A stretch of 64,000 nucleotides of DNA, taken from the NCBI GenBank assembly GCA_016188915.1, contig JACPGU010000002.1, positions 85,287-149,286 of the forward strand, given 5' to 3'. A program made the translations under genes and the position numbers. Positions 4,502-60,900 of the stretch are shown here, piece after piece. Position 1 is the stretch's first letter. The number at the start of each line of letters is the position of its first letter. This stretch comes from Candidatus Microgenomates bacterium. Lineage in GTDB: Bacteria; Patescibacteriota; JACPGU01. Below the pieces are notes generated by a model. That model was not told the origin of the DNA. It ran no database searches and saw nothing but the letters and a program-made list of their open reading frames with translations.

Positions 4502-5778
4502 TATTTTTCGTTATTTGATAATCTTTGAGCTATAAGTATCAATCCAATAATCACCCATACATGCATTATATAGATAGTAGAGAAAGTAGCATACTGCAGC
4601 AAAATAGCAAAAAAAGATAAGCTCAAAGCAAAGATCAGAGTCTTAATCCATCTATCGTGGGATCTGATATAGGAAAAAATCGATTGCCAAAATACAGAGA
4701 TAATAAAAAGTAAAAAAGCTAAAAATCCTATTGTTCCGATTTCTGACAAAATCTCTAAATATTGATTATTGACTATGGGCCAACCAGCTTCTGGCACATT
4801 GACGGGGTAGCCAGAAAAATAAGGCCCAAAATTACCAATCCCTATGCCAACCCAGGGGTTATGGCGAAAAGCATCTATCGCTACCGCATAAGACTCTTGT
4901 CTTTCCTTGATAGAGCCTCCCTGAAAAATTATATTGTAAGCTTTTTCATAGCTTTTGTCCCAAGAATACCCCCCGATTTTGCTGACCGCAAACAAAGAAA
5001 TGAAAAAAACTAATAGAGAAATAAGGAGAAGGATATAATTTTTTTTATGAAAAACAATTTTTGCTCGTAATATCAAAAAAACTATAAGCGCGATAGTCGT
5101 AGCTATTATACCGCCTTTAGAAAAAGTAAGTAGCAAACTCAACAAAAGCGTCAAAAAACCGATAAAAAACCATGTTTTGTTTTTCTTTTCATCGGAGAAA
5201 AAAGAAGCAGACAAAAAAATCAAAACTGGCGCTATCAAAAAATTGGCGAAATACAATGGTTCAATAAAAGTAGACTGTATCCTTGGCAAACCGAAAACAT
5301 TATGAGTATAACGATTAGATAGCCCAGTCAAATATTGCGGAAGCCCTAAAAGATCACCGCTAAATTGAAAAAATCCAAAGATAGCGGCTAAGATGGTCGT
5401 TCCTAGAAAGATAGCCAAGGCGACATTAAACTTTTGTTTGGAATCTATCGCTGACACTAACGCAAAAGGTACAAAAAACATAAATGTCGAGAATGCCAAA
5501 ACATGAATACCTCTATCTAGATTTTGCGCCACTGTCAAAGAAATCAATCCTGCCAGTAAAAAAACTAAATAAAAAATCAAACTCTTGGGGATGTATATTT
5601 TTTTATTAAGAAATAGAAATCGCCAGCTGATGATAAAAATCAAGGCTACAACAAAGATCTGGCTTAATCTAATGGTAAATCCAGCAAAATCAAAGCTACC
5701 AATTCTTTCCATTGGCAAAACAATAATAGTGGCTAGAGCTAGAAAAAAATCTATATTTTTAACAAAATATTTAATCAT
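4501..5778 (-). CDS. O-antigen ligase/Wzy-like polytopic membrane protein (paralog 2)
   Basis: 425 aa and polytopic. Motif FSKGGIIATTIALIVFL in a Wzy_C-like position. Confidence 0.55.
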   Translation of the reverse strand: MIKYFVKNIDFFLALATIIVLPMERIGSFDFAGFTIRLSQIFVVALIFIISWRFLFLNKKIYIPKSLIFYLVFLLAGLISLTVAQNLDRGIHVLAFSTFMFFVPFALVSAIDSKQKFNVALAIFLGTTILAAIFGFFQFSGDLLGLPQYLTGLSNRYTHNVFGLPRIQSTFIEPLYFANFLIAPVLIFLSASFFSDEKKNKTWFFIGFLTLLLSLLLTFSKGGIIATTIALIVFLILRAKIVFHKKNYILLLISLLVFFISLFAVSKIGGYSWDKSYEKAYNIIFQGGSIKERQESYAVAIDAFRHNPWVGIGIGNFGPYFSGYPVNVPEAGWPIVNNQYLEILSEIGTIGFLAFLLFIISVFWQSIFSYIRSHDRWIKTLIFALSLSFFAILLQYATFSTIYIMHVWVIIGLILIAQRLSNNEK

Positions 5779-11917: not shown

Positions 11918-11949
11918 TGTCGCATTATAGCATAAAGAACAAAATATAA

Positions 11950-11975
11950 AAAGAGGGCAAAGCCCTCTTTTTATA
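11950..11975 (-). terminator. rho-independent terminator hairpin
   Basis: AGAGGGC-aaa-GCCCTCT is a perfect 7-bp stem with T-runs on both sides. It lies immediately 3' of the 29-aa micro-ORF on the minus strand. Confidence 0.6.
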
Positions 11976-20629: not shown

Positions 20630-22240
20630 TTAGCAATTGGAGAGGTCGCATAGTGGCCTAGTGCGCCGCCTTGGAAAGGCGGTATATCCGCAAGGGTATC
20701 GGGAGTTCGAATCTCCCCCTCTCCGTTTATAGGGATAGATGTGCCTTTTCTGTATTATCAGGAAGGGTTTTTTTAGTATAATATCGAGTTTTTTGTTAGT
20801 CAAAGTGAAGTTCGAACCGATTGTTTTCAGGATTTGCTTTTTCGTCTCCATATTTCCAGTTTCAAACTTTATTTTGGTGTAATAAGAGAAATTAAACAGT
20901 TCCTCTACTAGTTCGAGCTGACAGTATTCTTTGTCCCTCCATTTGTTCTCTAGTGTTGTTATTTCTTGTTCTTCCTGTATTGTTTCTTTGGAGAATTTTT
21001 CACAATCCTCTGAAGTGAAAAATCCATTATCTTCCAATATCTGTCTTTTCAGATTATCCATTTTCTTTTTATTGCTTTGCCTGCGTTGCTGAAGACCTTT
21101 CAATATCTCGGTCTGAGTTTTTATCTCCTGATTGTTATGCTCTCTTGCATATTTCAAGACCCATTCCTTGAATTTATCAGAGATAGTTATACTATTTATG
21201 GTTTCTAGTAATTGCCTGTCGAGCTCTTTAGCTACTATGTATGGTTGGGAGCACTTTATCGCTTTGTTCTTTCTTGTGCAACGGTAGTAGGTGTAGTATG
21301 GGGTTTTAATGCGAGTTGCGTGGCGGTTCCTGTGTTCCTCTGCTGTTATCGAGCAACCACATTCGCCACATTGTATTAGGCCAGTGAAATCAAAGTCGTG
21401 CTTTTGTTTTCTTGGCTTACCCTTACTTCCTAGGGCATCCTGAATGTAATCAAACTCCTCTGGCGTTATCAGGGATATATGATGGCCTTGCTTAATGCTT
21501 CCTCTGTGCTTAATCATTCCGTAGTAGAACGGGTCGGTCAAAATCCTATAAAATGTGCTCCTAGACATTGGGCCACCACCCATTTTTTTAGTTCTTGGAG
21601 TTCGGTAGCCATACTCATTGTTTAGTGTTTCCAGAGCCTGTCTAACTTCGTATTTGTCATACAGGATTAGCTCTAACGACTTTCTTATTAGGTTAAATCT
21701 CTCAGGGTCGGGGATGGATTCACTCAATCCCTCTCCCCTAGAACCATCGTTAATATATCCTGCTGGTGCAGAGCCAGGCCTTAACCCTCTCTCGAACTTC
21801 TGCCTATACCCCCTCAGGATATCCTCACTTTTATTGTCGTTTTCTAACTTTGCCTGATTGCAAATCATACTAAAAAGAAATTTATCATTGGGGGTATTTT
21901 TGAATACTTGGTTTGGTGTTCTAATTTCAGCTATTTTACCCGAATCCATCAGGTATACCAACATCCCAGTGTCGACAGAATTTCTCGATAACCTGTTTGC
22001 ATTCCAAGTAAGAATACCGTTAGCTTTATTATGTTCGAATCCCTTAATCATATCATTGAACACTGGTCTGCCAGGCTTCTTGGCGGTGTGAGATTCCTGT
22101 AATGTATCGCAAATATGTAAACCAATCTTTTTTGACAATACACTTAACTCCGCTATTTGTGACTCAATAGAAGCAGCCTGCTTCTCTTCTTGCTCTGACG
22201 ATTTTCTTGCGTATAGAATATAATTTATTTTTTCTTCCAT
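20630..22240 (-). CDS. large serine recombinase (integrase), 3' end antisense to tRNA-Ser
   Basis: 536 aa. Resolvase-type catalytic N-terminus YILYARKSSEQEEKQAASIESQ. Central recombinase domain and a Cys-rich zinc-ribbon region (CGECGCS...YYRCTRKNKAIKCSQPY). The last roughly 30 codons lie entirely within the tRNA-Ser gene on the opposite strand. Confidence 0.85.
   Translation of the reverse strand: MEEKINYILYARKSSEQEEKQAASIESQIAELSVLSKKIGLHICDTLQESHTAKKPGRPVFNDMIKGFEHNKANGILTWNANRLSRNSVDTGMLVYLMDSGKIAEIRTPNQVFKNTPNDKFLFSMICNQAKLENDNKSEDILRGYRQKFERGLRPGSAPAGYINDGSRGEGLSESIPDPERFNLIRKSLELILYDKYEVRQALETLNNEYGYRTPRTKKMGGGPMSRSTFYRILTDPFYYGMIKHRGSIKQGHHISLITPEEFDYIQDALGSKGKPRKQKHDFDFTGLIQCGECGCSITAEEHRNRHATRIKTPYYTYYRCTRKNKAIKCSQPYIVAKELDRQLLETINSITISDKFKEWVLKYAREHNNQEIKTQTEILKGLQQRRQSNKKKMDNLKRQILEDNGFFTSEDCEKFSKETIQEEQEITTLENKWRDKEYCQLELVEELFNFSYYTKIKFETGNMETKKQILKTIGSNFTLTNKKLDIILKKPFLIIQKRHIYPYKRRGGDSNSRYPCGYTAFPRRRTRPLCDLSNC
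20639..20725 (+). tRNA. tRNA-Ser (anticodon GGA), class II with long variable arm
   Basis: Hand-folded. Acceptor GGAGAGG/CCTCTCC, D-stem GCAT/GTGC, anticodon stem CCGCC/GGCGG with loop TTGGAAA, 6-bp variable arm ATATCC-GCAA-GGGTAT, T-stem GGGAG/CTCCC with loop TTCGAAT, discriminator G. Confidence 0.85.
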
Positions 22241-22299
22241 ATACTTGTTGTTTATTTATATTATAGTTATTTTCCAAACAAAATAAAAGAGTTTTTGGC

Positions 22300-22530
22300 T
22301 TAATCAAGCGTAGTTTTTCGATGCTGTTCTCGGAATCTACTTTCTGACTTTATACTGCTTCCTATACCAACAACTGCTTTCGGCAAGCAATCGACCTCTT
22401 GTGGAGCGACTAACTGAAATATCTCTATCAGTTCTGCTCCTTTGCCCATAGCTTCACTGTCGGGGATAGTCTCTCCGAACTCTTCTTCCCAAATATCTTG
22501 TAATGCTCTTATGGACTCGTCTGACAACAT
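22300..22530 (-). CDS. hypothetical protein
   Basis: 76 aa, acidic, no motif. Confidence 0.3.
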   Translation of the reverse strand: MLSDESIRALQDIWEEEFGETIPDSEAMGKGAELIEIFQLVAPQEVDCLPKAVVGIGSSIKSESRFREQHRKTTLD

Positions 22531-22576
22531 TTCACTCTTCTTTCTCGTAATTTCTTACGGTTCTTTATAATAAAAA

Positions 22577-22605
22577 AATCTGGGTCAGTGCGGTGAACCC
22601 AGATT
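22577..22605 (-). terminator. hairpin terminator candidate, also one arm of an 11-nt inverted repeat
   Basis: AATCTGGGT-(11 nt)-ACCCAGATT. On the minus strand it is followed by TTTTTTTATTAT. Its loop GGTCAGTGCGG recurs inverted at 22655-22665 (CCGCACTGACC). Confidence 0.4.
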
Positions 22606-22953
22606 CTTTTAACTAAACTCAATTTAATTTAATTAAATTCAGTAAACATAAGTCCGCACTGACCTTGACTCTTAAAGTGTTAAGTTGCAGGCGGTAATAA
22701 AAAACCGTCCTGCTGATATCAAAAAAGCTTTCATCACGTGAGCAATATATGCTTCTTTGATTTTGGCAGAACGGCATTATAGCCAGTTCTTATAATGTCT
22801 TGTATTTTTGTTTAACTTTGCCTAGTTGTTAATTCTATTTTAACTCTCTGGGATAAAGCGTCAATAGCTTTTTTGGCTTATCTATGTGATAGTTTGGTAG
22901 AGTATTGAAGACTAGTCAAAATATCTGTGGAAAACTATAATGCGTTGACCTTA

Positions 22954-24249
22954 TTATATTCGTCGTTCTATAAATTTATCTTGAAACTTTTCAATAGTCT
23001 GGAACGACACTTCGTTGAAGTTAAATATCTTGAAAAGCTTTATGCATAAATCATTTGCTGTTTCTTTCCATAAAGACTTTAGTTTTACCGATGACACTCT
23101 TTCGTCCAAAGATACTACGGATTCACGACAAATATACCAATCGTAAAGCAAAATATTAAAGTCGTAGGATTTTAGCTTTCTATCTTCAGCACCGTAAAGT
23201 TTTATACCAATATCAATATCGCCATCGTAGTTTAGCTCATCTACATAAAACTGTTTAGAGAATAAGAGAAATTCTGTTATTGAGTATATGGCTCCTATAT
23301 AGCTTAATGCTTTGCCTGTGTCGGTTTCGTCCTGTTTTGCACCGTCTTCTCTTAGAGTGATTTTGTAAACAAAAAGACCGCTCTGGAAAAGACGGAAAGC
23401 TTCATAATGCTTTGGTTCAAATTTTGTCCACGACTGAACACCTTTTGAAAAGTTAGCAAAATCGTTTTTATCAAGATGTGGAAAATCCCACCCCCTCAAT
23501 TGAACTCTCTGGTTCTCAACTGCTTGTTTTACTTTGGTTATATCTGGAATTAAGTCTTTTTTATATTCGGTTGGTTTTACCACTATTTCCCAATATCCAT
23601 ATTTTTTTAACTCTTCTCCTATTTTTTTCTCGATATAGTCACTGGCTTCGACCAACTCATCCTTGTAATCGTCATTTTCTTCTGTATTGCTGGGTCTTCC
23701 ACTAAACAGTCGTCCAATCTGATTCAATAGAAAATCTCCTTTCTTGGTCATTGCCCTACCAAGTAATTCTCGCATTTCCGTTGAAGATGGTATGGCTTCG
23801 CTCGATCCCTTTTCCGTTCTAATATAAATGCCCCCATCTTTTAGTATCGGTTGCTGTTTTGTATTCTGATTACTCCTCTTGCATATTATTGGTTCTTCAT
23901 CGAATTCGGGTACTTCTATTATGACAAGGTTCTTTCCTTTATAAATAGGTCGTTGAACATAAACTGTAAATTTAGGGTCTGTATAACTATGCAATTTATT
24001 ATTAAAGGAAGTCTGGTCAAAGGACGCGAGATTCTCATCGGATAAACCCTCTACTGTGCCGTCATCCTTTATGCCAATAAAAATTCTCCCACCGTTTTTA
24101 GTGTTTGCCATCGCCAATATGTCTTTTATGACACCGAGATGACAATCTTTATCAGTGTTGCAATTAAAATCTTCCTTAAAGTCGACATTGGCTGTCTCTG
24201 CTCTCGATTTAAATATTTGCTCTAGCTCTTCTTCTGGGTATTGCGACAT
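22954..24249 (-). CDS. Schlafen-like AlbA_2 (putative DNA-binding) domain protein
   Basis: 431 aa. The N-terminal 120 aa, FKEDFNCNTDKDCHLGVIKDILAMANTKNGGRIFIGIKDDGTVEGL, match the AlbA_2/divergent-Schlafen pattern (E..EfK....DK...i.k.isAfANt.GG.l.iGv.DdG.i.G). The C-terminal 250 aa are unassigned. Confidence 0.55.
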   Translation of the reverse strand: MSQYPEEELEQIFKSRAETANVDFKEDFNCNTDKDCHLGVIKDILAMANTKNGGRIFIGIKDDGTVEGLSDENLASFDQTSFNNKLHSYTDPKFTVYVQRPIYKGKNLVIIEVPEFDEEPIICKRSNQNTKQQPILKDGGIYIRTEKGSSEAIPSSTEMRELLGRAMTKKGDFLLNQIGRLFSGRPSNTEENDDYKDELVEASDYIEKKIGEELKKYGYWEIVVKPTEYKKDLIPDITKVKQAVENQRVQLRGWDFPHLDKNDFANFSKGVQSWTKFEPKHYEAFRLFQSGLFVYKITLREDGAKQDETDTGKALSYIGAIYSITEFLLFSKQFYVDELNYDGDIDIGIKLYGAEDRKLKSYDFNILLYDWYICRESVVSLDERVSSVKLKSLWKETANDLCIKLFKIFNFNEVSFQTIEKFQDKFIERRI

Positions 24250-24409
24250 AAAGTTTCATTAATATCTCTATTTATTATAACACAAAAAAACAGGATTTGC
24301 CCTGTTATTTTTGTCCGAAAAAGAGTTGTTTAATGGACAGATGTTTTACTTTTACCTGTAAGGTTGAATAGCCACTATTTTCGATAGGGTTTTTTGGACA
24401 GGCGATATT

Positions 24410-25198
24410 TCATTTAATATCTATGTCGTCCATATCAATATCCATAAGCTCTCTAAATTTTTCGGCTATGCTTTTCCATTTACCTGCCGTTGGTTCGGAA
24501 ATATCTATTACTAACTCGCCATTAAGGTTTTTCTTTATATACTTATGTTTCTTGATTTTCTCATAAAAAATTACTTCCATAAATTCATTTAGTAAGCTAA
24601 GTGTCGTCTTGATAGCCATAAACACCCCATAATGATATTTCTCGTGTTCTTTTTTGTAACCACCACCAATCCAAAGTGTAGGATTTGTCTGGTCGAGATT
24701 TCCCTTGGGGGCAGTATGTAAGAGGCTTATATGCGAAATATAGTTGCTTAGTACTCCATACTCCTGCCCAGCCAATGGAATAGCTTTGGTGGCAATTGAG
24801 ATAGCCTTTGTAGAGTCATACTTATTCGATTTTAACTGTATCAGTTTGTCGGGGTTAGAATGTATATCAAAAGCAGAAGCCACTGTTTCTACTACCATTC
24901 TTAAGATTGTCTGTGGCTCCAAGATATGTCCTCTTCTAAAGATTTCTATTGCAGATATTATTGACCCAAGCCCATTCCATAAAAAAATAGCGGATTGAAA
25001 ATCTGCATCAGATAGAGCATTCTCTCCTTCAGAATCAATAAGACCGATAAGGGTTTCTAATGACTCGGCTATTTCTTCTGCGAGACCATAGAATATCTCG
25101 TCATAATTACTATCAAAATCTTGGGCGACAAGGTCGCTTTTTGACTTTATATGTCCCAAAACGGTTTCTGTTGTAATTGGTTGCCTAACCGTATCCAT
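24410..25198 (-). CDS. hypothetical protein (island cargo)
   Basis: 262 aa, no recognisable motif. Acidic C-terminus MDIDMDDIDIK. Confidence 0.35.
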   Translation of the reverse strand: MDTVRQPITTETVLGHIKSKSDLVAQDFDSNYDEIFYGLAEEIAESLETLIGLIDSEGENALSDADFQSAIFLWNGLGSIISAIEIFRRGHILEPQTILRMVVETVASAFDIHSNPDKLIQLKSNKYDSTKAISIATKAIPLAGQEYGVLSNYISHISLLHTAPKGNLDQTNPTLWIGGGYKKEHEKYHYGVFMAIKTTLSLLNEFMEVIFYEKIKKHKYIKKNLNGELVIDISEPTAGKWKSIAEKFRELMDIDMDDIDIK

Positions 25199-25223
25199 AG
25201 TAACATTATACTATTTTTATAGA

Positions 25224-25805
25224 CTATTTGAAACTAGAAATCGCATTTTGTACTGTCGATTTTGAGATGTTTACCATACTTGCTATTCTCCTAACAGACA
25301 ACCCTTGCTGTCTTAATTCACTTATCCGAACAATATCAATCTCTGATGCTGGTCTGCCTATTTTCTTTCCTTTTGCTCTTGCCTTTGCCATTCCTGCCCT
25401 CACCCTCTCTTGGATTATTGACCTCTCAAATTCTGCGAAAGCAGATATCATTGTGAACATTACCTTCCCTGTCGGTGTCGATGTGTCTATCGCCTCTTGA
25501 TAGCTCACAAAGTCTATTCCTAGCGAATTAAAGGTATCCAGAGAGGTTATGAGTTGCTTTGTGCTTCTACTGAACCTATCAAAGCGAAATACCACCACAC
25601 AATCAAATTTTCTCTTGTGAGCGTCATTTAATAGCTCCGTAAGGGCCGGTCTGTTTTCTTTGCTTCCGCTATCCGTATCAGTGTAGCTTCTGAATACCTC
25701 CCAGCCTCTATTTTTCACATACTCTTGTAATGGTATCAGTTGGGTATCGAGGTCTTGGTTCTTATCTGTGGTACTTATACGAGCGTAGATTGCAATTTTT
25801 TTCAT
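25224..25805 (-). CDS. small serine recombinase (resolvase/invertase family)
   Basis: 193 aa. Catalytic N-terminus IAIYARISTTDKNQDLDTQ. C-terminal HTH LSVRRIASMVNISKSTVQNAI. Confidence 0.8.
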   Translation of the reverse strand: MKKIAIYARISTTDKNQDLDTQLIPLQEYVKNRGWEVFRSYTDTDSGSKENRPALTELLNDAHKRKFDCVVVFRFDRFSRSTKQLITSLDTFNSLGIDFVSYQEAIDTSTPTGKVMFTMISAFAEFERSIIQERVRAGMAKARAKGKKIGRPASEIDIVRISELRQQGLSVRRIASMVNISKSTVQNAISSFK

Positions 25806-25844
25806 ATCTTGTGGTTAGTTATATTGCTATTGGCACAAAACAAA

Positions 25845-25866
25845 AGCCTCGCATTTCTACGAGGCT
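25845..25866 (-). terminator. rho-independent terminator (minus strand)
   Basis: AGCCTCG-catttcta-CGAGGCT. Followed on the minus strand by TTTTGTTTTG. Lies 3' of yidD. Confidence 0.55.
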
Positions 25867-26003
25867 TTATTGTTGAGTAATTTCTCTTTTCTATTTTTCG
25901 GTTTTTTCTTTTCGCTCCCCATAACCAAAATTATTGTATAGATTTAGTATAGAATATGAACTATCTGTGTCAATAGTTATTGTCTATATGAGGCCAAATA
26001 TCA

Positions 26004-26219
26004 CTATGGGTAATCTATACAGCTCTCGAAATTGTCTGGGCGACATCGGTTAATACGATTGAGGGCTTTTCTTGTCCCCATTGTCACTCCATACTTCTCA
26101 ATAGCCAATATGGCATAATCGGAACAAGTTGGATAAAAACGGCACTGTATCCTGCGTCTCAAAAGTGGCGAAATTGTCTTCTGGTAGACAACTATTAAGA
26201 ATATAACTAATTTTGACAT
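26004..26219 (-). CDS. yidD: membrane protein insertion efficiency factor YidD
   Basis: 71 aa. The RFYPTCSDYA motif and overall pattern are typical of the YidD family. Confidence 0.75.
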   Translation of the reverse strand: MSKLVIFLIVVYQKTISPLLRRRIQCRFYPTCSDYAILAIEKYGVTMGTRKALNRINRCRPDNFESCIDYP

Positions 26220-26220
26220 C

Positions 26221-26478
26221 CTATAGTTCGTGTGTTATTTCTTCTTTTTTTATAGCTCGAGAACCACATTTTGGGCACTTGCCAAGGTCTAGTGGCTTTT
26301 TGTCTGGGATAAATGCAGCGGGGCCACAACCAGAACAGCACGATGCAGATTTGCCACAATTCTCCATCGATTCGCCACACGACTGTGCCGCTTCCTGCTT
26401 ACCATAGAACCAGATATTCCCACAAGCACTACAGCTACATTTTGTTTCCTTTATGATTTTGGGCTTTGTTTTTTCCAT
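26221..26478 (-). CDS. zinc-ribbon protein
   Basis: 85 aa with four CxxC pairs (CSCSAC, CCSGC, CPKC). Its end abuts the yidD start. Confidence 0.45.
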   Translation of the reverse strand: MEKTKPKIIKETKCSCSACGNIWFYGKQEAAQSCGESMENCGKSASCCSGCGPAAFIPDKKPLDLGKCPKCGSRAIKKEEITHEL

Positions 26479-26522
26479 ATTTCGTATTTAGTTAATAATA
26501 TGACAGTTGGGCTATTATTATC

Positions 26523-28073
26523 CTATTTGCAGGGTTCGTGTAGGGTTCTACTGGGATATGCTTTCTGTACAGCTTCTAAACTCGGAAAAGATTGTAGATA
26601 TTTTGTAGAGAGATTCTTATAGGCCGAGTCTGTATCGCAATAATAAAGATATGCTGTGCCATAAGAGCTCGCATAATAAGTGTGTCCAGATGTGGTTTGC
26701 GGGGCAGGGACTGGAGTGGGCGTTACTGGTGCTGGCACAGGGCTAGTTGGTGCTGGTGTGGTGGTAGTTGGTGACGAACTTGTTGTATTGCCGCTACAGG
26801 TAGTCGAGCTCCATAATCCCTTCTGCCCACTTCTCGCTTGTTTCTCTGCTTCTTTGAACTCGGCTTGGTATTTATATGGGATATCGTATGTATATTCGTG
26901 AGCATACCCATCACCAATCATTTGCTTGTTAAAAAATGTGCCATTTTCAAGATAAACATAACGCAATAGCCGACCATATTTGTCCCTATCCCCTTGAGTC
27001 GCATCAGATTCAAGCTTAACTTTCTTCCCCGAAAGCAATGCCTTCGCTCTATTGGAAGCCTCAACACCAAAACACTGAACTGGTTTTCGAGGGTCAACAG
27101 TTTCAGGAGTATCTACACCTATTAGACGAATCGTTTCTGTCTTTCCGCTAACACTGGCCTTAAAAGTATCGCCATCCGTTACGGAAACAACGCCATAATA
27201 CTGTGTAGTGGTCTGGGTGGGCGTTGTCTGGTTGCTCTGGGTGTTTGAACCAGAAGATGACTGACTAGCGTCCGTTTTGTTGTCTTCCCCTGTTGTTTGG
27301 GATTCTTGATTTGCCTCCTCCTTCTTTGGTGGAGTATAGGTTATTTTTATATCCTTTCTGTCGCTTTGATTCCCTGCTTCATCTATAGCTATAAGATAAA
27401 AATTGTTCTCTCCTTCATTCAGGCTGACTGAATCAACGGTAATTTCTTCGCTGGATTCTCGTACCTCTTTAATTTTTTTGTTGTCTGAACCAAAAAGTTC
27501 TATTCTTGCGTTTTTCTCTGTTTTTCCTTTTATATCTGTCTTGTCTTTGTCGCTAGTAATCTCTGTATTTTCAAGTTCTATGTTTGGCTTTTGTGTATCA
27601 AGAATAATTTTTTTAGTAGCACTTTTATTTGTACTGCCATTACTGTCTGTTGTGCTTACATAAACTGTGTTTTCACCTTCATTGAGCGTAAACTCTCCAA
27701 AAATGAACTTTCCGTTGGAATCGGCAATCACTTCTTGGATTTCTTGATTATTTATCATAAGTTTCGCTTTTGTCCCGCTTTCAATATGGTAGCCAGAGAC
27801 AACAACCGCCTTTTGATTAGTCGGACTTTTTATTTCATCTAAAAAAGGTTGTCCTTTTGCCGACAAGGACATTATCAGAATCAAAAACACCACAACAACT
27901 ATGGTGGCAATGATTTTATAGACTCGTCCCCATTTGGTCTTCGCCCAAATAGTCCAGACAGCAATAAAGGGTAATAAGAGAATGATAACTGGTAGTAAAA
28001 CGATGATGGCTACAATGCCCCACCATTTTGCATACCATCCTCTTTTTTTGGTTTTTACTTCGGTGTTTTCCAT
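26523..28073 (-). CDS. membrane-anchored secreted thermonuclease (SNase-like) with Ig-like domains
   Basis: 516 aa. N-terminal TM helix, then two beta-sandwich-like regions, then an SNase core VSVTDGDTFKASVSGKTETIRLIGVDTPETVDP...RDKYGRLLRYVY. Ends in a Pro/Thr-rich linker and a Cys-containing C-terminus. Confidence 0.7.
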   Translation of the reverse strand: MENTEVKTKKRGWYAKWWGIVAIIVLLPVIILLLPFIAVWTIWAKTKWGRVYKIIATIVVVVFLILIMSLSAKGQPFLDEIKSPTNQKAVVVSGYHIESGTKAKLMINNQEIQEVIADSNGKFIFGEFTLNEGENTVYVSTTDSNGSTNKSATKKIILDTQKPNIELENTEITSDKDKTDIKGKTEKNARIELFGSDNKKIKEVRESSEEITVDSVSLNEGENNFYLIAIDEAGNQSDRKDIKITYTPPKKEEANQESQTTGEDNKTDASQSSSGSNTQSNQTTPTQTTTQYYGVVSVTDGDTFKASVSGKTETIRLIGVDTPETVDPRKPVQCFGVEASNRAKALLSGKKVKLESDATQGDRDKYGRLLRYVYLENGTFFNKQMIGDGYAHEYTYDIPYKYQAEFKEAEKQARSGQKGLWSSTTCSGNTTSSSPTTTTPAPTSPVPAPVTPTPVPAPQTTSGHTYYASSYGTAYLYYCDTDSAYKNLSTKYLQSFPSLEAVQKAYPSRTLHEPCK

Positions 28074-28297
28074 ATCGTTTGGTTATTTATAAACACAAAA
28101 AAGGTCACCTGAACTAGCGGTGTAACCTTGCGGACACACCCGCTATCCTTTCGGATAGTGACCTCAACGACGAAGTACCAGTCAGATGACCGTTCTTGTC
28201 GTTGAGGATTTCATAACCATACCTCAAATTACTTCGAGGGTTAGGTTAATACTCTAAATTGTAAATATACTCTATCATAAAAATCTACCAGAGTAAA

Positions 28298-28930
28298 CTA
28301 CCCATAAAACTTCCATTTCTTCTTTAATTCTTCTTGATAGCAGTCAAAGGATTCATCTTCATTTTCAATTAAAGACCATTGTGAAAACCAAAGTCGCACT
28401 CTTTTTTGTTTATCTTCTTCCGTTCCATCTTGCCATCCCCCAAACCTCTTTTTTCCTATAGCCGTATGGGAATCTATAAAAATTTCTTTTATCTCTGGAA
28501 AATTTTCATCCTTATCTATTTCGTCCACTACGATATTGGTCAGGTTATCTCCGAGTCTTGTCTTTTTATTCCTGCAAGCCAAAACTATTAGATTAACAAA
28601 GGGGAGAAATCCATCTCCCCCAAAGTTCGTTTTGAATACTGATAGGTTCATTCTTATTTCCAGTATCCCTGCCAACGTTAGTGCTGTTGTGTTTGCTAGT
28701 CCTATGTCCTCGTGGACTATCGTGTTTAATCGTCTGCTCAAATATTTTCCGTATCCTGAAGCGTAAAATATGTAAGCAAATTTACAAGCGTCTCTTTCGT
28801 CTCCCCTCCTGATACATTTCTGAAGAGCTGAAGCAACGAGGTCAAAAGTATATCCTTTATCTTCAAATTTCTTTGCCAATTTTATCTCCCATCCTTTTCC
28901 TGCTTTTTGTTTCTTTTCTTCTGCCATCAA
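28298..28930 (-). CDS. stand-alone RarA/MgsA C-terminal-domain (MgsA_C)-like protein lacking AAA+ module
   Basis: 210 aa. FDLVASALQKCIRRGDERDACKFAYIFYASGYGKYLSRRLNTIVHEDIGLANTTAL...LIVLACRNKK lines up with the RarA C-terminal pattern [47 protein letters not shown]...VYLACAPKS. Confidence 0.5.
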   Translation of the reverse strand: MMAEEKKQKAGKGWEIKLAKKFEDKGYTFDLVASALQKCIRRGDERDACKFAYIFYASGYGKYLSRRLNTIVHEDIGLANTTALTLAGILEIRMNLSVFKTNFGGDGFLPFVNLIVLACRNKKTRLGDNLTNIVVDEIDKDENFPEIKEIFIDSHTAIGKKRFGGWQDGTEEDKQKRVRLWFSQWSLIENEDESFDCYQEELKKKWKFYG

Positions 28931-29120
28931 TTTGTTTTAGTTATGTTTTTATTTTAGTTTATGTACCCACTGTGTCAATAGGATTTTAGCTTAACCAAGG
29001 GTCTTTTCTGCCATCACACAACATCGTGTACAACCCTTGCTGTCTTGAATGATGGGTTTGATTTAAGTCATTATTTGTGCGATAATACAAGCGAATTACA
29101 GGTAATAGCGTGTAAAAACA

Positions 29121-30569
29121 ATGTCAAATATAGACTCGCCTCAATATCTATCAAGCAAGGACATCGGAGTTTTGAAAAAAACCCTTGTCTCGTTTGCAAT
29201 CGACACATCAAAAGACAAACGAATCGGGCAACCCTATTTCCAGAACAATGAGCAATGGGAATTTTTCTATTTATACTTTAAAAAACACGCAGAGGAAGAT
29301 ATAAAGAAAATCTGTAGCAATATCATAAGCAATCATAAAGAGATTAAAAAGACGATATTTTTTGATGCAATCTACGATATATTCCAAAGAAATGTTTTTT
29401 ATGCTATTTTTCGAGGCGAATTCACCGCTGTGGCGTTAAAAACCGAGAAATTTGATGATGGCAGTATGGCTATTGACCTCGCTCCTCGTAAAGTGGGTTT
29501 AGATACATTCATTAAATATTCTGATGACTTAGCTATTCCGATTGTCGAGCACATAAACCAGCAGATAGCCAATAAAATATCTTTTTACAAGAATCATAGA
29601 GTGATAACGTGGGTGCCAGTTACCAACTTACGCATAGACAAAGATGTATGTTTTGAATTTGCCAATGTTAGTTTTATCTCTAAAGAGTGTCCCGCTCTTA
29701 CGGAAAATTTTGTAAAGTGGGTTAAAATGGATAAGTTTCGAGATGGCGAGAGGACAATGCTTAGAGATTCTGGAAATTTTGCTATTATAAAGTTCGAGGG
29801 CTGTTCAGCACCAAAAGCAATCTTTGATTTAAGTAGGCCATATTTCAATAAAGTGTTTGGTGTCCTCCGTCTATTGCTAGATTGGGCAGAGGTAGAAGGA
29901 GAACTTATAGGGACAAAGCAGTCATTGGAGACAGAATATACCGTGATTTATTCTGAGAGTAGTCACGATAACTCCACGATGACAGCAGTGATGCCAGAAA
30001 TAAATAGCGATTTCTTTATTGCAAGAAATGAATATTGGATACGTTGTCCGATAATTAGCAGTAAGAGCATTGAGCAAATATCGAACTCTCCTAACCTCAA
30101 AGCCACAAATGCGTTATTGGAAAGGGCATATAACAGTAAGAGTACCTCATTGGATAGCAAGATTTTTGACTCATTATTTTGGTATTCAGAAAGCTTAAAA
30201 CATTTTACTACTCCCCATAAACTTGTTGGATTTGTAACTGCCCTAGAGACTATTCTTACAAGCAATAAGCTAACAGAGGGTTTTTATGACAAATCAATAT
30301 CGGAAATGTTCTCAGAACGAGGAGCTATAGTGTTGTGCGATAGCTATGAAGATAGATTGGAAATGAAACGAAAACTAAAAGGGATATATCGCATAAGAAG
30401 TATATTGGTTCACGGTTCTGGAACGGGTAGCATATCAGATTCCGAAATCACCGATGCTCATCATCTAGCCACAGGCATTTTGTTGGGAGTCATTGACTTA
30501 GCGAACAAAGAGAATATTTCTTCAGTAGAAGAACTGAACGATTATTTTCAAAAAGTATTACTGTCCTAG
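29121..30569 (+). CDS. HEPN-like (Rx4-6H) domain protein, possible abortive-infection/defense effector
   Basis: 482 aa. The C-terminal alpha region carries KLKGIYRIRSILVHGSG (R-x4-H and R-x6-H). The N-terminal 300 aa are unassigned. Confidence 0.4.
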   Translation: MSNIDSPQYLSSKDIGVLKKTLVSFAIDTSKDKRIGQPYFQNNEQWEFFYLYFKKHAEEDIKKICSNIISNHKEIKKTIFFDAIYDIFQRNVFYAIFRGEFTAVALKTEKFDDGSMAIDLAPRKVGLDTFIKYSDDLAIPIVEHINQQIANKISFYKNHRVITWVPVTNLRIDKDVCFEFANVSFISKECPALTENFVKWVKMDKFRDGERTMLRDSGNFAIIKFEGCSAPKAIFDLSRPYFNKVFGVLRLLLDWAEVEGELIGTKQSLETEYTVIYSESSHDNSTMTAVMPEINSDFFIARNEYWIRCPIISSKSIEQISNSPNLKATNALLERAYNSKSTSLDSKIFDSLFWYSESLKHFTTPHKLVGFVTALETILTSNKLTEGFYDKSISEMFSERGAIVLCDSYEDRLEMKRKLKGIYRIRSILVHGSGTGSISDSEITDAHHLATGILLGVIDLANKENISSVEELNDYFQKVLLS

Positions 30570-30595
30570 GTTTAATACTATAAGCAACCACTATA

Positions 30596-31129
30596 TTAAC
30601 AGCTTCTCCTTATTCCCAGCTTTATTTCAAAATCTATAAGTGTCTTGGTGGCTTCTAAAGCAAATTTCAATGCTTTGTGCCTTGCTCTAAGAGGCATCTT
30701 GGTTGTTTCTTCGTAGTCTCTCCCTAATTCTTGGTACCTTTTCATAGCTTCTTGGCAAATCGCAATGAGTGATTTCAGGGAATCAAATTCCTGTTTTTCA
30801 TAAACAATTTTTATCTTTCTAAAAAAATATGGATTTCCACTAATAATTACTGCTGAATCTTGTGTTAAGAGATTATTTCTATAATTATTTATAACAGTGT
30901 GGGACGGGATACTTATATTGGGATAATTTATACGGTTGCTTCTAACCAAATACTCTAACTCTGACTTAACTTTTCTTGAAGAATAACCACCGATTACCAT
31001 TTGCCTTAATTCATCCTCTAGCTCCGTTGGGAGAGTAGCTATCTTATTTTTATACCCATAGTCCTTTAGCAGGAGCATTTCTGCTAAGTTATCGGTATTT
31101 CTTTTGATTTGTTCTTCGGTCATTTTCAT
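30596..31129 (-). CDS. hypothetical protein
   Basis: 177 aa, no motif. Confidence 0.35.
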   Translation of the reverse strand: MKMTEEQIKRNTDNLAEMLLLKDYGYKNKIATLPTELEDELRQMVIGGYSSRKVKSELEYLVRSNRINYPNISIPSHTVINNYRNNLLTQDSAVIISGNPYFFRKIKIVYEKQEFDSLKSLIAICQEAMKRYQELGRDYEETTKMPLRARHKALKFALEATKTLIDFEIKLGIRRSC

Positions 31130-31304
31130 ATTTTCTCCTGCATTTCCCGAACAGTTGTAAAGGGATAATTGTATTACCTCATATTTTTTGGTATTATTTA
31201 TGAAGTTTGTATATTAAATGACTGGGATTAGTATTGGCTCTAGCTCCATCAAAGAAATTCGAATGTCGTCCCAGAAGTCCCGTTTTTTGAAAAAAATGCC
31301 GAAA

Positions 31305-31990
31305 GAAAAGCGCGGGGCGTGATGCCCCGCGATAAAATGTATGCTTCAAGCGATCTGCGAGGGGCGCAGATTGCCCAAAACATTACGCGTAATGTCTTAG
31401 TTTTAGTTTCCACTTCACACTATCCCCATAGTGCTTTTTCACCTCTTAATGCTGGCCAGCCACGAAGTTGTGATAATTCTCGAGATCTGACCTTGTCGAA
31501 ATCGTGAAGGACCTGGTGTTGCCGTCACAATCAGAGGCCGTCAGGGTGTCTCCTTTGTGAACCACTTTTCCCCCCAAACAACCAATGATTTCCCTCTCTT
31601 TTGTAGCTTCCCATAAAATCGGGAGTTCTTCTTTCCGCCCTTCTCTTACTGTTCCTTGATCTTGAGTTCGCATGCTCTGAGCCTTTCTGGTTCGTCTGCC
31701 GTAGACAGACTATGGTTTTTTCCTTCCTACTGAAAGGAAAGCTCTACTCTCCCTTCAGGGATTAGCCCCGAGTTATTCCCGGTTTGTTTTGGGACTAATC
31801 CAGTGCCGATAGATCACCTCCTTGCGTTCTCCTTGAGATTTTACACCAGAGCCCAGAAAGTAGGCTTTTATTTTTAAGGTCGGAAAGGTGTTCGCAACAA
31901 CATGGAGAGAAAACTGTCAGAGCATGCGAAGGCGAGCCAGTTTTCTCATCCATGTGTCGCGAACCTGCCGGAATAATAATCTTATGTTAG
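31305..31990. ncRNA. candidate large structured non-coding RNA (identity and strand unresolved)
   Basis: This is an ORF-free stretch of about 0.7 kb with visibly higher GC than the flanks. It contains local hairpins GCGGGGC-gtgat-GCCCCGC (31311-31332), ATCTGCG-aggg-CGCAGAT (31352-31374), CCTTCC-tactgaa-AGGAAAG and GGATTAG...CTAATCC. It also has a perfect 14-nt long-range complement GTTCGCATGCTCTGA (31668-31682) with TCAGAGCATGCGAA (31918-31932), and a crossing complement ATTCCCGG (31781-88) with CCGGAAT (31964-70). Confidence 0.35.
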
Positions 31991-32015
31991 CAAAATAAGA
32001 GAAGAAAGTCAAGCC

Positions 32016-33497
32016 CTAGGGTAGATGCACGGCCTTGGCGGCGTAGGACCTGTGATCGTTGGCAACAATCACCACCAAATCTTCTTTTTTGGCCAATTTT
32101 TTGGTTTTGACGAAATGGGCGATTTCCGCCATCAACTTTTTCTCATTTTCCAGAAAAATCCCGTAGCCGGCCACTACCCCCCAAGAAAGAGCCAGTTGAT
32201 TGATGACTTTTTTGTCATGGGAGAGCGCCACCACGAAACATTGCGGCCTGGACTGCGATATCATCCGCGCCGAAAATCCTGTTTCGGTAAAGCAAACGAT
32301 GCATTTAGCCTTCACATTTTTGGCCAAGGCTTTCGCCGAAGGACCGATGATTTTTGGCGAGATGACGCGATGCGACTGGTTTTTCAAGGGTACCAGATTG
32401 GTTAGTGAAAAATTCTCAAAATTGAGCCTGCCAGTGCGGAAAAGTCCCTTCTCTGTCTCGCGAATGATAGAGGCCATCATTTTCACCGCCTTGATCGGAT
32501 AGGGCCCCATAGCTGTTTCTTCCGACAGCATCACCGCGTCCGTGCCATCCAGCACCGCGTTGGCCACATCGGAAACTTCGGCTCTGGTTGGCCTGGGACT
32601 GGTCATCATTGACTCCATCATTTGAGTCGCCGTAATGACCGGCTTGCCACTTGATACCGCGGCCGCAATGATTTCTTTTTGCGCCAAAGGCACTCTCTCC
32701 GGTGGCAATTCAATCCCTAGATCGCCACGAGCCACCATCACGCCATCGGCTTCCCGCAAGATGCTTTTGATACTGCTGTATGCGTGCGGTTTTTCTATTT
32801 TGGCGATGATTTTGACTCGCGAATCTTTGCGAATTTTGCGAATTTCTTTGCGAAGAATACGAATGTCTTCCGCCGACTGAACAAAAGAAAGCCCAATGAA
32901 ATCCACGTCGTGTTCCACTCCCCAGCGCAAATCGGCCAAATCTTTTTTCGTTAACGCGCCTATGGATAGATGAGCGTTGGGAATATTGATGCCCTTACGA
33001 GACAAAACCAATCCCCCGCGAACCACTTGCGCCTCGGCCATTCCTTTTGCTTTGCCGATCACTTTGAGCTCCACCATGCCGTCCATCATAAGGATTTTGG
33101 TGCCAATTTTTACCTCTTCGGCCAATTGTTTGTAATCAATGGGAAGAAAACCTTTTTTGAATTTGCCGAAACCTACCGAGATTTTCTCGCCTTCGGTCAA
33201 AACAACGCCTTTTTTCGGCAGATCGGCTCCCAAGCGAATCCGCGGCCCTTGAAGATCTTGCAAGATGGCCAGCGACTGATGGTCTTCGTTAGCAATACGC
33301 CTCAATTGATAAAGCCATTGCTCGAACTCTTCATATTTACCGTGCGAAAAATTAAACCGCGCCACATCAAGCCCGGCCTCAATCAAGGCTCTCTGCGTTT
33401 TTTCATCTTTCGTCGCCGGCCCGATGGTGGCGACAATCTTTGTGCGATTTTGGGAAATGTTCATTTTGTTTTTATTAGTTTCTCTATTGTGTTCCAA
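32016..33497 (-). CDS. pyk: pyruvate kinase
   Basis: 493 aa. KIVATIGPATKDEKTQRALIEAGLDVARFNFSHG, ...MVARGDLGIE and later motifs are present. Has a short N-terminal extension. Confidence 0.9.
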   Translation of the reverse strand: MEHNRETNKNKMNISQNRTKIVATIGPATKDEKTQRALIEAGLDVARFNFSHGKYEEFEQWLYQLRRIANEDHQSLAILQDLQGPRIRLGADLPKKGVVLTEGEKISVGFGKFKKGFLPIDYKQLAEEVKIGTKILMMDGMVELKVIGKAKGMAEAQVVRGGLVLSRKGINIPNAHLSIGALTKKDLADLRWGVEHDVDFIGLSFVQSAEDIRILRKEIRKIRKDSRVKIIAKIEKPHAYSSIKSILREADGVMVARGDLGIELPPERVPLAQKEIIAAAVSSGKPVITATQMMESMMTSPRPTRAEVSDVANAVLDGTDAVMLSEETAMGPYPIKAVKMMASIIRETEKGLFRTGRLNFENFSLTNLVPLKNQSHRVISPKIIGPSAKALAKNVKAKCIVCFTETGFSARMISQSRPQCFVVALSHDKKVINQLALSWGVVAGYGIFLENEKKLMAEIAHFVKTKKLAKKEDLVVIVANDHRSYAAKAVHLP

Positions 33498-57918: not shown

Positions 57919-57928
57919 GTTTTAAGCT

Positions 57929-60900
57929 ATGGCCGATCTCTCAAACCAAAACAAAAATCCTAAAAATTCTACCGGTCCTGATATCAAGGGCTATGTTCAG
58001 GGTGCCAAATCAGCCGCCAGTATGACTCGTGGCCAAGAAGGCAAATCTAAAGAACAGATAAAAAAAGAGCGTGAAGAGGTTGGCGGAGCAACCCTAAAAG
58101 GCATCGCTGATTATAGTACTGGCGGAAAAGGGTCGAGCATCATTAGTAAATTTGAGAATGCTCCCCTGATCGGCCGTTTGATCAAAAAAAGAGAAGCTGA
58201 GCTAGGGAAAAAAATAGAAAAGCCCTTGGCCACTGCCGGCAAAGCTACCGGTTTGTCTAAAAAAAGTCGTGGCGCCACCTCTGTCGCCGAGCCAGAAGAA
58301 AACGAGGAAGAATCTTTTGATGAAGAAGGGAGTCTAGAAGAAGAGGAGGATTCTCGCGCCAATCAAGCCCGCCAAACGGCTGCTACCGCTGCTAAACAAA
58401 AAGCAAAGCAAGCCGCCATTCGCGCCACTATGCCCTATTGGGGTGCGGCTTGTGTTGTTTTGGTGATTTCTTTTTTGGTTTTTATGATTGTCTTGGGACT
58501 GATTAACGCCTTTGTTAATCATGGCTCTGCTGGTAAAACAAAAGGGCAATTGCTATCCAAGGGCGATCCTTCTGACGAAGCCCTCAAGGATCAAGTAATG
58601 GCTAACGCTGGTGAAGACGCTGCCCTGTCTCGTTCTATCGCTAGTCAAACAGAGTCTGCGTTGGCATCAGTACAGGGAATACTAGATGTCGCCAAAGAAA
58701 AAAATCTACCCGCCGTCCAAGAAGAAGCGCAAACTTTGCAAGCCGAAATATTGGCCTTGGGCACCGGGAATTCTTCCGCAGATAAAGCCAATATTGAAAG
58801 GCTCCAAAAAAGAGTCTCTATTCTACTAGGAGATAAAGAAGACTTCAAAGAAGCGTCTGAAAAAGTCAAAACCACCAACCCTGGACAAAATAAAGACGCG
58901 GTAGGTGATATGGAAAAATTAAGTCGCGTCCGAGAGGAGATGACCAAAAGCCCCGAAAGCAAACAAGGCCTGATTTTATTAAAAACTCAATTGCAAAAAT
59001 TAGAAACTATTGTCGCTACTACCGTTTCTTCCAAGTTGGTTATTTCGGAAAAAGATAAATATTATATTCGCTCCTATCAGGTAGACCGTCGCGTGTTAAA
59101 GGCTTTAAATTATTTGGTAACACCAATTAATCAGGGTGGCGCCGGATTTCGCAAAATAAAAGTGGGGCGGATTAAAAGCTCTTACGATTCGGAGGGGAGA
59201 AAGTTTTCTAAAGAATGGGATTTTACCACTAGCGAAGATCGCTCTGTTAGTCCACATTTTTCTGGTCAAGCTTTTGATGTGACGGCCATTGATTATGTGG
59301 ATAGAAGACTTTACAAAAAAGGCATTGTTAGAAAAAAAATCAAAAAGCTTCCCAGCAAAGATATTCTAGTAGCTCTCCAGTCTAACAAATCTGGTAAAGG
59401 CATTGGCAATTCCCTGACTAGTAGTGGCGAAACTTTTGGTTTGCTGGCCGAGGATGCCTCTACTTCAGTACTGCTTGCCCAAATCAGCGAGATGACCGGC
59501 TATAATCTAGAGGGGCTAGACGTTGGCAGCGGAAGCTTTGCTGACCTTACTAAAAATATTGGCTTGGCCATTTTGGCCGAAGAGCTAGGTTCTTCCATGG
59601 ACTCTGATCAAAGCAATGGTTCTTTTGAGGATTTGCTGAAAAATGTCGGGGCCGAAGCTATCGCCGACTGCCTGGATCTGCCAAAAAGTTCTTTTGATGT
59701 TTACGGAATAGAAAATTTGGCAGTCGGCGATAGCCAACTGGCAGCCCTGGATTTTGCCGGCAAACCAGCCGCCACACTAGAAGAAAATATCGGTCGCGCC
59801 CTAACCGAGCAAAGGCTCAATCTCGCTCCTGGCTCTTTGATTGGCGCAAGCTCTGAAGAAATATTAAAGAACCTAGGCAAAAGAAAATTGGAGAAAAATC
59901 TAGGGCTACCTAATCTTTCTCTGGAAAATATTTCTAATAATACCGACGTTGTCGCCCACATCGGCCAGATTGTCATTGAGCAAAGAATAAATCTACCAAA
60001 AAATAGTCTGAGTAGCAACAATCTACCTGATATAAAAAGTGCTCTTGGAGAAAAATTATTCCGTAACGCCTTTGCCATTAATCCGGCCTCTACTGATACT
60101 ATTTTGGGGCTAGATCCCAAGGGAACGAGATTGACTTTTGACTCCAACGACCCAGAGCTAGGAACATTAAAACAGATGAATGGAAAATACATTGTCGCGC
60201 CATCGCAAAAATTAGCGTCTGGACAATATTCTGTTCTTGATTACAAAAAAATGGTTGGGGCCAGCCTTCTTCAGACAAAAATCGGCTCTTTTGCCACATA
60301 CCCTATAGCCACAACAAAAATACTGCCTTTCTCCGGTATTATTATGGTCCCCTCTAGCTTGCTAGGCTCACAAAAAGACGAGGCGATGGACATGCCCGAT
60401 GGTAGTATCAAAAAAATATTGGAAGAAAAATCGAACATAGAGTCGGCACTGTCCGATATCGGTCTGGACGAAATAATCAAAAGGCTCACCGATAATAGCA
60501 ACGAGCGCGATGTTTTGTACCAATGGCATTCTCTCAACAAAAATCTGTCATCAGAAAAAAGAGTTGAGCTAGACACTATTGGTTTCCGTCCGACCATAAA
60601 TACTCCCTTAAAGAAAGCGTCTATTAGCGCCCTAGACGATTCTTCCTCTATCTCTTTGAACGCTGACAGTCTCGGCAATACTTTTAATCTTGTCAGTCGC
60701 TACGGGCCAACAGAAACAAAAATAAATGATAAAAAAAATCTTTCCAAGGCGGAGATATCTTCTCTGGACATAAAAATAGGAGAAAAATTGGCCAAAGACG
60801 AGCTGGAAAAATACAAAGATGACTATGAAAACGAAACGACTGATTCTTTCTTCGCCTATATCACCGAAAGCTATTTTGATGAGTCTCTAGCTCTGCCAGA

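Follow-up and report, generated by a model that had tools for sequence, protein, structure and literature searches.

Two kinds of described system come closest to the element treated here. Messenger RNAs (mRNAs) of the hok/tisB type, which encode type I toxins, carry their own promoter, a long and very stable leader and an intrinsic terminator, and are controlled by fold-back of the leader or through ribosome standby. Large ornate non-coding RNAs (ncRNAs) include GOLLD (Rfam RF01998), ROOL (RF03087), HEARO (RF02033) and OLE (RF01071), and the known members keep recognisable blocks across far greater evolutionary distances than the one spanned in our comparison. We analysed a 0.7-kb segment (31305-31990) of a 64,000-nt stretch of a Candidatus Microgenomates contig (JACPGU010000002.1; the whole stretch is hereafter called the window), which a preliminary description had flagged as a candidate large ornate ncRNA. 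Our results indicate that the segment is probably a small lineage-specific transcription unit rather than one large ornate RNA. The specific reading that we tentatively prefer is an orphan small gene that has a promoter of its own, followed by a long structured leader, which would occlude the start region of the gene, and by a terminator.

The evidence that carries this reading comprises a minus-strand promoter and terminator, with the promoter and the terminator tail kept in a related genome (L001, a Candidatus Saccharibacteria metagenome-assembled genome, MAG), the pattern of folding z-scores along the segment, the codon bias and AlphaFold2 model of a 75-codon open reading frame (ORF75), the predicted pairing at its start site, and the architecture of the equivalent interval in L001. 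Coordinates of all features are collected in Table 1.

Predicted transcription signals and their conservation

The segment lies in an 886-bp intergenic gap between a pyruvate kinase gene (PK; 32016-33464, minus strand; Pfam domains PK and PK_C) and an ORF of 177 aa (30596-31129, minus strand). Other intergenic gaps in the window are mostly 70-280 nt long, and this is the only long GC-rich one: the interval 31300-31990, which we call the slot, has a GC content of 0.473; the window as a whole stands at 0.393 and the other gaps at 0.19-0.39. As previously described, no ORF longer than 75 aa occurs between PK and the 177-aa ORF on either strand, the longest being ORF75 itself (31446-31673, minus strand). 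The shift in base composition that had drawn attention to the segment is real when measured as GC content (0.29-0.38 before ~31200 and 0.44-0.49 beyond), but it is at least partly, and probably largely, the boundary between an AT-rich integrated island (GC 0.375) and the core sequence (GC 0.44).

A consensus scan identified a sigma70-like promoter on the minus strand whose first base is the last base of the PK stop codon, giving an inferred transcription start at ~31977. At the other end of the slot, a hairpin followed by a U-run forms a candidate intrinsic terminator. A sigma70 unit (TTGACT-17-TAACAT with TG extension) and an intrinsic terminator are thus found on one strand, so that transcription is predicted, and these signals would assign the element to the minus strand.

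Among 185,579 species genomes, the best match to PK was found in L001 (91% amino-acid identity), followed by a Patescibacteria MAG (L002; 56%) and then by Bacteroidota (~43%). Protein searches of 5.8 billion sequences returned no further close PK, whether full-length or fragmentary/C-terminal. The probable start of PK is the ATG at 33464 (482 aa, as in L001) rather than the TTG at 33497 given in the mechanical ORF list.

In L001, PK is followed after 40 nt by a promoter almost the same as that of the window (GGGCTTGACTTT..TTATTTT..TATAAT, 3704-3735), which ~870 nt separate from a terminator that has the same tail and precedes tRNA-Ser. The terminator tail and its spacer, CTTTTCTTTYGRCATTTTTTTCAAAAA(A)CGG, are kept; the stem sequence differs. 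Between L001 and the window, PK shares just 52% identity at its four-fold degenerate sites, and neutral DNA would therefore be unalignable in any case. That both the promoter and the tail are kept despite this divergence indicates that they are under selection. The slot interior is not, at least at the sequence level. It is unrelated in L001, where blastn recovered the tail only, a global alignment gave noise, the best local Smith-Waterman score equalled the shuffle mean, and tblastx between the two slots returned nothing. In L002, PK directly abuts tRNA-Ser and the slot is absent.

Folding of the predicted transcript

The 680-nt minus-strand stretch has a folding z-score of -5.2, compared with -2.6 for the plus strand and -2.9 to +1.7 for 32 control stretches of the window. 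The excess structure is limited to the first 304 nt and the last 146 nt (Table 1), and the middle, which shows no such excess, coincides exactly with ORF75. The L001 slot (3704-4585) matches this three-part pattern, with z-scores of -2.6 for a 245-nt leader, +0.4 for an ORF of no fewer than 128 codons and -5.8 for the 3' end. The L001 ORF has a strong Shine-Dalgarno (SD) sequence and is broken by an N/poly-C assembly artefact at about 4368-4440.

The several local hairpins noted in the preliminary description were recovered, as perfect or near-perfect helices distributed over the leader and the 3' part (Table 1). The predicted transcript would begin with P1, an interrupted hairpin with a folding energy of -41.9 kcal/mol (z = -7.4), followed by a multi-branched leader domain whose closing helix has a pair probability of about 0.85. 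The 3' strand of this helix is the purine-rich stretch AGAAAGG (31688-31682), which ends 8 nt upstream of the AUG of ORF75.

The perfect 14-nt long-range complement was also confirmed, with 236 nt between its arms, here termed box A (31917-31930) and box A' (31667-31680). Dinucleotide shuffling did not reproduce it (0 of 1000 shuffles reached 14 nt; maximum 13), and a longer perfect inverted repeat (16 nt) occurs in one of 90 other 686-nt stretches of the window; the repeat exceeds chance expectation. Box A is exposed in the apical region of P1, with a mean unpaired probability of 0.74, and box A' includes the AUG of ORF75. The A/A' duplex has a calculated energy of -25.2 kcal/mol. As a nested helix it costs 14.5 kcal/mol relative to the minimum free energy (MFE) structure, and the pairing would therefore need a loop-to-linear pseudoknot. 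The second, crossing complement reported earlier is present (31631-31642 with 31876-31887; 12 nt, one mismatch) and forms an outer helix round the leader domain in the full-length MFE structure, but it is at chance level, with ~0.5 such matches expected by our own estimate for a region of this size, and is not evidence by itself.

A sequence resembling the 16S 3' tail had been placed at about 31818. That sequence, GATCACCTCCTT, does occur, at 31812-31823, and read on the minus strand it is AAGGAGGTGATC, a 12-nt perfect SD. The next-longest anti-SD match among the 77 GGAGG sites in the window is 8 nt, so the 12-nt match is unique there. No start codon (AUG, GUG or UUG) lies at initiation distance from it, and in the folding model it is mostly paired (GGAG with CUCU, GUG with CAC). 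A 16S fragment was ruled out as its origin: the match is limited to 12 nt, and no small-subunit rRNA match was found in Rfam.

Coding potential of ORF75

Codon usage was scored as a log-likelihood per 90 nt, trained on 28 long ORFs of the window. On this scale real genes have a mean of 5.2 (standard deviation 2.8), and stop-free wrong frames have a mean of -1.7 (95th percentile 4.2; 99th percentile 6.85). ORF75 scored 4.4, 5.9, 7.0, 3.2 and -0.4 along its length, and the values for its first three 90-nt intervals fall among those of real genes and exceed the 95th-99th percentile of the wrong frames. The AlphaFold2 single-sequence model of the predicted protein is moderately confident, with predicted local distance difference test (pLDDT) values of 78-86 for residues 28-73 and a predicted template-modelling score (pTM) of 0.50. 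It shows a beta-rich domain of four strands with an amphipathic C-terminal helix. An antisense control ORF gave a pTM of 0.29, and its confident part was a lone helix. Searches of the ORF75 model with Foldseek against PDB and BFVD returned nothing significant.

A possible mechanism and the points against it

Taken together, these features would fit the following sequence of events. The sigma70-type promoter right after the PK stop would start a transcript of ~680 nt, whose first ~300 nt would fold into a very stable leader made of P1 and the five-hairpin domain. ORF75 would come next, and two or three hairpins plus the intrinsic terminator would finish the transcript. It is possible that the leader holds ORF75 translationally silent in two ways: the closing helix of the leader domain would pair the purine-rich stretch just before the AUG, and the apical 14 nt of P1 would pair the AUG-containing 14 nt as a loop-to-linear pseudoknot. 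ORF75 could then be translated only after refolding or processing, or with the help of a trans-acting factor. A ribosome standby or decoy site is a possible role for the buried 12-nt SD, which has no start codon of its own. Transcription, translation of ORF75 and occlusion of its start are what we infer from these elements.

Several observations weigh against an expressed small gene of this kind. No credible homologue of ORF75 was found in a word-indexed search or in Pfam, PHROGs, PADLOC and PDB sequences, and the slot-encoded protein that had been called was a singleton in a cluster look-up. An ORF of this length is ordinary in purine-rich sequence (by our estimate ~0.3 are expected per strand), the codon score drops to -0.4 at its 3' end, and the gene caller behind a matching Logan contig chose a plus-strand ORF of 61 aa instead. 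The L001 ORF has a poor codon-usage score and a sequence unrelated to ORF75. The only matches obtained with phmmer are to highly repetitive surface proteins with Ig/cadherin-like domains, and their E-values are inflated by summing over near-identical repeats. A structured 300-nt leader is also atypical of the genome, whose genes are mostly leaderless or have short AU-rich leaders. Most gene starts in the window have no SD (a strong one is present in only about 4 of 36 genes), and at many genes a TATAAT box lies 5-8 nt before the ATG (e.g., 3303, 11917, 25198, 35349, 40213), which implies leaderless mRNAs.

If the occluded-gene reading is correct, it would be a case of translational control through a long leader in the ultra-small genome of an episymbiont whose genes otherwise have leaderless or short AU-rich starts. 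The same reading would also describe a variable slot beside a tRNA integration site, in which two sister genomes keep the promoter and terminator and carry unrelated cargo.

Alternative explanations

The alternative that survives best, which we regard as unlikely though a serious contender, is a stand-alone, lineage-specific structured ncRNA on the minus strand, made of either the whole 680 nt or the ~300-nt 5' domain, with ORF75 being fortuitous. In that case the 12-nt SD and the loop of 14 exposed nt would serve as functional sites for RNA-RNA or RNA-ribosome contacts. Consistent with this are the promoter and terminator of its own, the 5' domain folding z-score of -6.0, the lack of an ORF75 homologue, and a perfect 12-nt SD without a start codon that is unique where few genes use SD sequences. 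In addition, the position in the only long GC-rich intergenic gap of the window is the classic signature by which structured ncRNAs are found. However, the middle third of the segment has no excess structure and is coding-like, and searches for related RNAs gave no match to a family at any threshold.

Specifically, an Rfam scan of the whole window at gathering scores returned only LOOT and two tRNAs, with GOLLD, ROOL, HEARO, OLE, raiA and other large ncRNAs not matched. A scan of 31100-32100 at E<=10 with permissive filters gave only sub-threshold small RNA (sRNA) matches and noise; the weak matches (ar9, ncS025, Hrs12 and others, E 0.4-1.3) all depend on the terminator hairpin. RNase P and tmRNA, for which the preliminary description had likewise found no motifs, were not matched either (Rfam on both strands, and ARAGORN for tmRNA), nor were the signal recognition particle RNA and 6S RNA. 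Group I and group II introns, riboswitches and T-box leaders also had no Rfam match.

Homology searches gave the same picture, with no alignable relative of the segment in any collection searched. Blastn found no homologue of the slot in the fetched loci, elsewhere in the window, or among phages and plasmids, and in viral contigs neither two exact 21-24-mers nor the 177-aa protein of the island was matched. A promoter-pattern scan of metagenomes returned 91 chance matches, none of them similar to PK or the slot. Searched without filters, a covariance model of the leader domain had no match in either L001 or L002; elsewhere it picked up only a trivial terminator hairpin (11946-11974). The L001 slot thus shares neither sequence nor structure with ours. 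Large ornate RNAs normally keep blocks over far greater distances, and the unrelated L001 interior therefore counts against the ornate-RNA reading. Our literature search on LOOT and on Saccharibacteria ncRNAs yielded nothing useful. Look-ups of exact proteins led only to one Logan contig, L081, which over 7,982 nt shows 100% identity with the window in the same orientation; it confirms the sequence and adds no variation. The locus is assembled from SRR12113420. Since a single genome carries the segment, an RNA family cannot be defined. The original proposal therefore holds in part: a structured RNA element is probable, given the minus-strand promoter and terminator and the outlying folding energy, but a single 0.7-kb RNA of the GOLLD/ROOL/HEARO kind is unsupported, and the segment should not be classed as a GOLLD/ROOL-type RNA.

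Rather improbable, in our view, is that the segment has no dedicated function. It would then be the 3' untranslated region or read-through tail of the PK gene (pyk), or decaying or replaced DNA at a tRNA hotspot, and its hairpins would be incidental or would stabilise the pyk mRNA. No terminator was found between the PK stop (32016) and 31331, and read-through of pyk transcripts across the segment is therefore probable. The slot interior is wholly different in L001 with both flanks conserved, tRNA-Ser follows PK directly in L002, and the site is a hotspot of integration. Against these points stand a promoter conserved over saturated neutral change, folding z-scores far beyond the background of the window, a 14-nt complement that shuffled sequences did not produce, and the length of the gap itself, since 886 idle bp would be unusual in so compact a genome.

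A more ambitious proposal is that the ~300-nt 5' domain is a new lineage-specific riboregulator of Saccharibacteria, a highly structured RNA setting a 14-nt loop against a start codon 250 nt downstream and holding a buried, perfect 12-nt SD decoy in a genome most of whose genes lack an SD. We give it little credence. If true, it would suggest that translation is controlled by capturing ribosomes or binding them in standby, or by titrating the 16S 3' tail.

It is very unlikely that ORF75 is a leftover of a gene for an Ig/cadherin-like repeat surface protein, spanning the junction of two repeats, with the region as a pseudogene remnant. This idea comes from phmmer, which against 1.84 billion representatives gave 21 matches at E<1e-3 (best 1.9e-18), all to large He_PIG/Big_9/Cadherin_4/Big_7 repeat proteins with 3-29 matched stretches. 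ORF75 and these proteins have a motif in common (L-T-A-S-D-x-D-G-N/D-x-x-x-F-T/S), and a hidden Markov model (HMM) built from the repeats of one match scored ORF75 at 13.3 bits, compared with at most 5.3 in 2000 shuffles. Nonetheless, the significance is a sum over 3-29 near-identical repeats that are individually weak in pairwise BLASTP (about 20-32 bits; 32% over 59 aa), and the HMM came from a match preselected as the best of 1.8 billion proteins, a winner's curse. Pfam models of He_PIG, Big_9 and cadherin-like domains miss ORF75 even at E<=10, tblastn of all 21 proteins against the window gave a single match (E = 0.007), and a PDB search likewise ranked designed repeat proteins at the top. 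The phmmer result is thus probably chance similarity inflated by repeats. A pseudogene in a shifted frame, raised earlier as a possible refutation of the RNA, was not found by six-frame translation or by tblastx against the L001 slot. The Ig-like repeat HMM matched only ORF75 among the six frames, leaving no further repeat remnants in the slot.

Least credible of all is an inverton, in which the 14-bp repeats would bound an invertible 264-bp switch flipped by a serine recombinase of the island and altering what lies upstream of the ORF. Repeat length and segment size are typical of those in inverton surveys (PhaseFinder-type), one repeat overlaps the ORF75 start codon and a 193-aa resolvase/invertase-type gene lies 6 kb away (25224-25805). 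Against the idea, no promoter-like site turned up within the segment in the consensus scan, the orientation is unchanged in L081, the sole other assembly of the locus, and the recombinase belongs to a later-arriving island and is not adjacent. One of the two repeats, moreover, lies precisely in the apical loop of a long hairpin, as would fit a role at the RNA level. A miniature inverted-repeat transposable element was also considered and ruled out, with neither a target-site duplication around the 14-bp repeats nor other copies being present.

The neighbouring island

The 3' end of tRNA-Ser(gga) (20638-20726, plus strand) is the integration site of an AT-rich island of ~10.6 kb (20638-31290). 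Besides the genes listed in Table 1, the island carries several orphan ORFs. Its right attachment site is marked by a degenerate copy of the tRNA-Ser(gga) 3' end, followed by the spacer GTTTTTTGAAAAAAATGYCRAAAGAAAAG, which in L001 comes after the intact tRNA-Ser. This places the flagged segment outside the island, on its core side, between PK and the ancestral tRNA-Ser(gga) site. L001 represents the empty site of the island. The position at an island/core junction, which had been taken as a hint of a GOLLD/ROOL/HEARO-like RNA, is explained by this integration at tRNA-Ser. A giant attenuator of the 177-aa gene was considered and ruled out, as the tRNA remnant shows that this gene came later, with the island.

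A near-palindrome, TTTTTTGAAAAAAA, occurs in the spacer between terminator and tRNA (remnant), near 31302-31290 in the window and 4560-4585 in L001. It adjoins the island junction (CCGTTT occurs at each of the two junctions) and may belong to the attachment site of the serine recombinase. The island also contains a full-length LOOT RNA (Rfam RF03000; 28119-28247, minus strand) with a score of 74 bits against a gathering score of 46.4, located between the SNase gene and a 210-aa ORF with a weak PHROG 'ATPase' match. The 177-aa orphan protein falls into one 90%-identity cluster with MBI2448251.1, a protein of 175 aa from a 'Candidatus Microgenomates' MAG, and this suggests that the island or its cargo may move between candidate-phyla-radiation lineages. 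Elsewhere in the window, the region at 58-64 kb that had appeared free of ORFs is really one plus-strand frame of at least 2025 codons (57926-64000), which runs off the window and is not listed by the ORF tool.

Table 1 Features of the predicted transcription unit and of the neighbouring island (window coordinates).
Feature	Position	Strand	Details
Sigma70-like promoter	31984..32012	-	-35 TTGACT (32012-32007), 17-nt spacer, extended -10 TGcTAACAT (31992-31984); consensus scan
Leader	31977-31674	-	304 nt, z = -6.0
P1 interrupted hairpin	31890..31964	-	10+6+10 bp (26 bp); 5' end of predicted transcript; apical region ~21 nt, weakly paired
Box A UUCGCAUGCUCUGA	31917..31930	-	Exposed in P1 apical region; perfect complement of box A'
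Multi-branched leader domain	31683..31860	-	Closed by CUUUCUGG (31860-31853) with CCAGAAAG (31690-31683); five hairpins inside; MFE and base-pair probabilities
AAGGAGGUGAUC	31812..31823	-	12-nt perfect complement of canonical 16S 3' tail
11-bp stem	31801/31759	-	Inverted repeat
13-bp stem	31758/31730	-	Inverted repeat
7-bp stem	31710/31694	-	Inverted repeat
Box A' UCAGAGCAUGCGAA	31667..31680	-	Includes AUG (31673-31671) of ORF75
ORF75 part	31673-31446	-	228 nt, z = +0.9
ORF75	31446..31673	-	MRTQDQGTVREGRKEELPILWEATKEREIIGCLGGKVVHKGDTLTASDCDGNTRSFTISTRSDLENYHNFVAGQH; stop included
12-nt complement, 3' arm	31631..31642	-	Pairs with 31876-31887, one mismatch; outer helix round leader domain in full-length MFE; crosses A/A'
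3' part	31445-31300	-	146 nt, z = -4.5
3' untranslated hairpins	31342..31434	-	31434/31417 (7 bp); 31382/31342 (17 bp, interrupted)
Competing palindrome AACATTACGCGTAATGTT	31377-31398	-	Alternative to 3' untranslated hairpins
Intrinsic terminator	31302..31331	-	8 G-C pairs CGCGGGGC/GCCCCGCG (31331-31311), 5-nt loop, then CUUUUCUUUC
Degenerate tRNA-Ser(gga) 3'-end copy	31262..31290	+	Right attachment-site remnant; aligned with tRNA-Ser 20638-20726 and with L001 tRNA-Ser and spacer
Large serine recombinase	20630-22240	-	Island
Schlafen/AlbA_2 protein	22954-24249		Island; PADLOC PDC-S50
Small resolvase/invertase, 193 aa	25224-25805		Island; 6 kb from segment
SNase + Ig-like protein	26523-28073		Island

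Comparison with known systems

Invertons share with the locus perfect 14-bp inverted repeats around a 236-bp segment directly upstream of an ORF, with serine recombinase genes nearby. They differ in that no internal promoter was found here by the consensus scan, one orientation is seen in both assemblies (window and L081), and the recombinase is not adjacent.

The large RNAs GOLLD, ROOL, HEARO and OLE resemble the segment in occupying a long GC-rich gap near a tRNA and a mobile element, and in their strong predicted secondary structure with multi-stem junctions. The segment differs from them in that covariance models gave no match at the gathering score or at E<=10, conserved blocks are absent in L001, its structure is limited to 304 + 146 nt around an unstructured, coding-like 228 nt, and no IscB/TnpB gene or prophage context is present on its core side.

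The comparison with hok, tisB and other type I toxin mRNAs also has limits. ORF75 is hydrophilic, with no transmembrane or hydrophobic helix, and so does not encode a small hydrophobic membrane-active peptide. An antisense RNA gene or promoter was not detected, but a plus-strand consensus scan of the segment cannot exclude one. No sequence or Rfam relation exists, and the mechanism proposed for the segment comes from single-sequence folding prediction. What the segment may share with these mRNAs, besides the promoter, stable leader and terminator, is that the AUG and the purine stretch upstream of it both have upstream complements, one of them long-range (~250 nt), and that a single-stranded or decoy ribosome-binding element would lie upstream of an occluded start. 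The arrangement would thus be a fresh instance of an already known kind.

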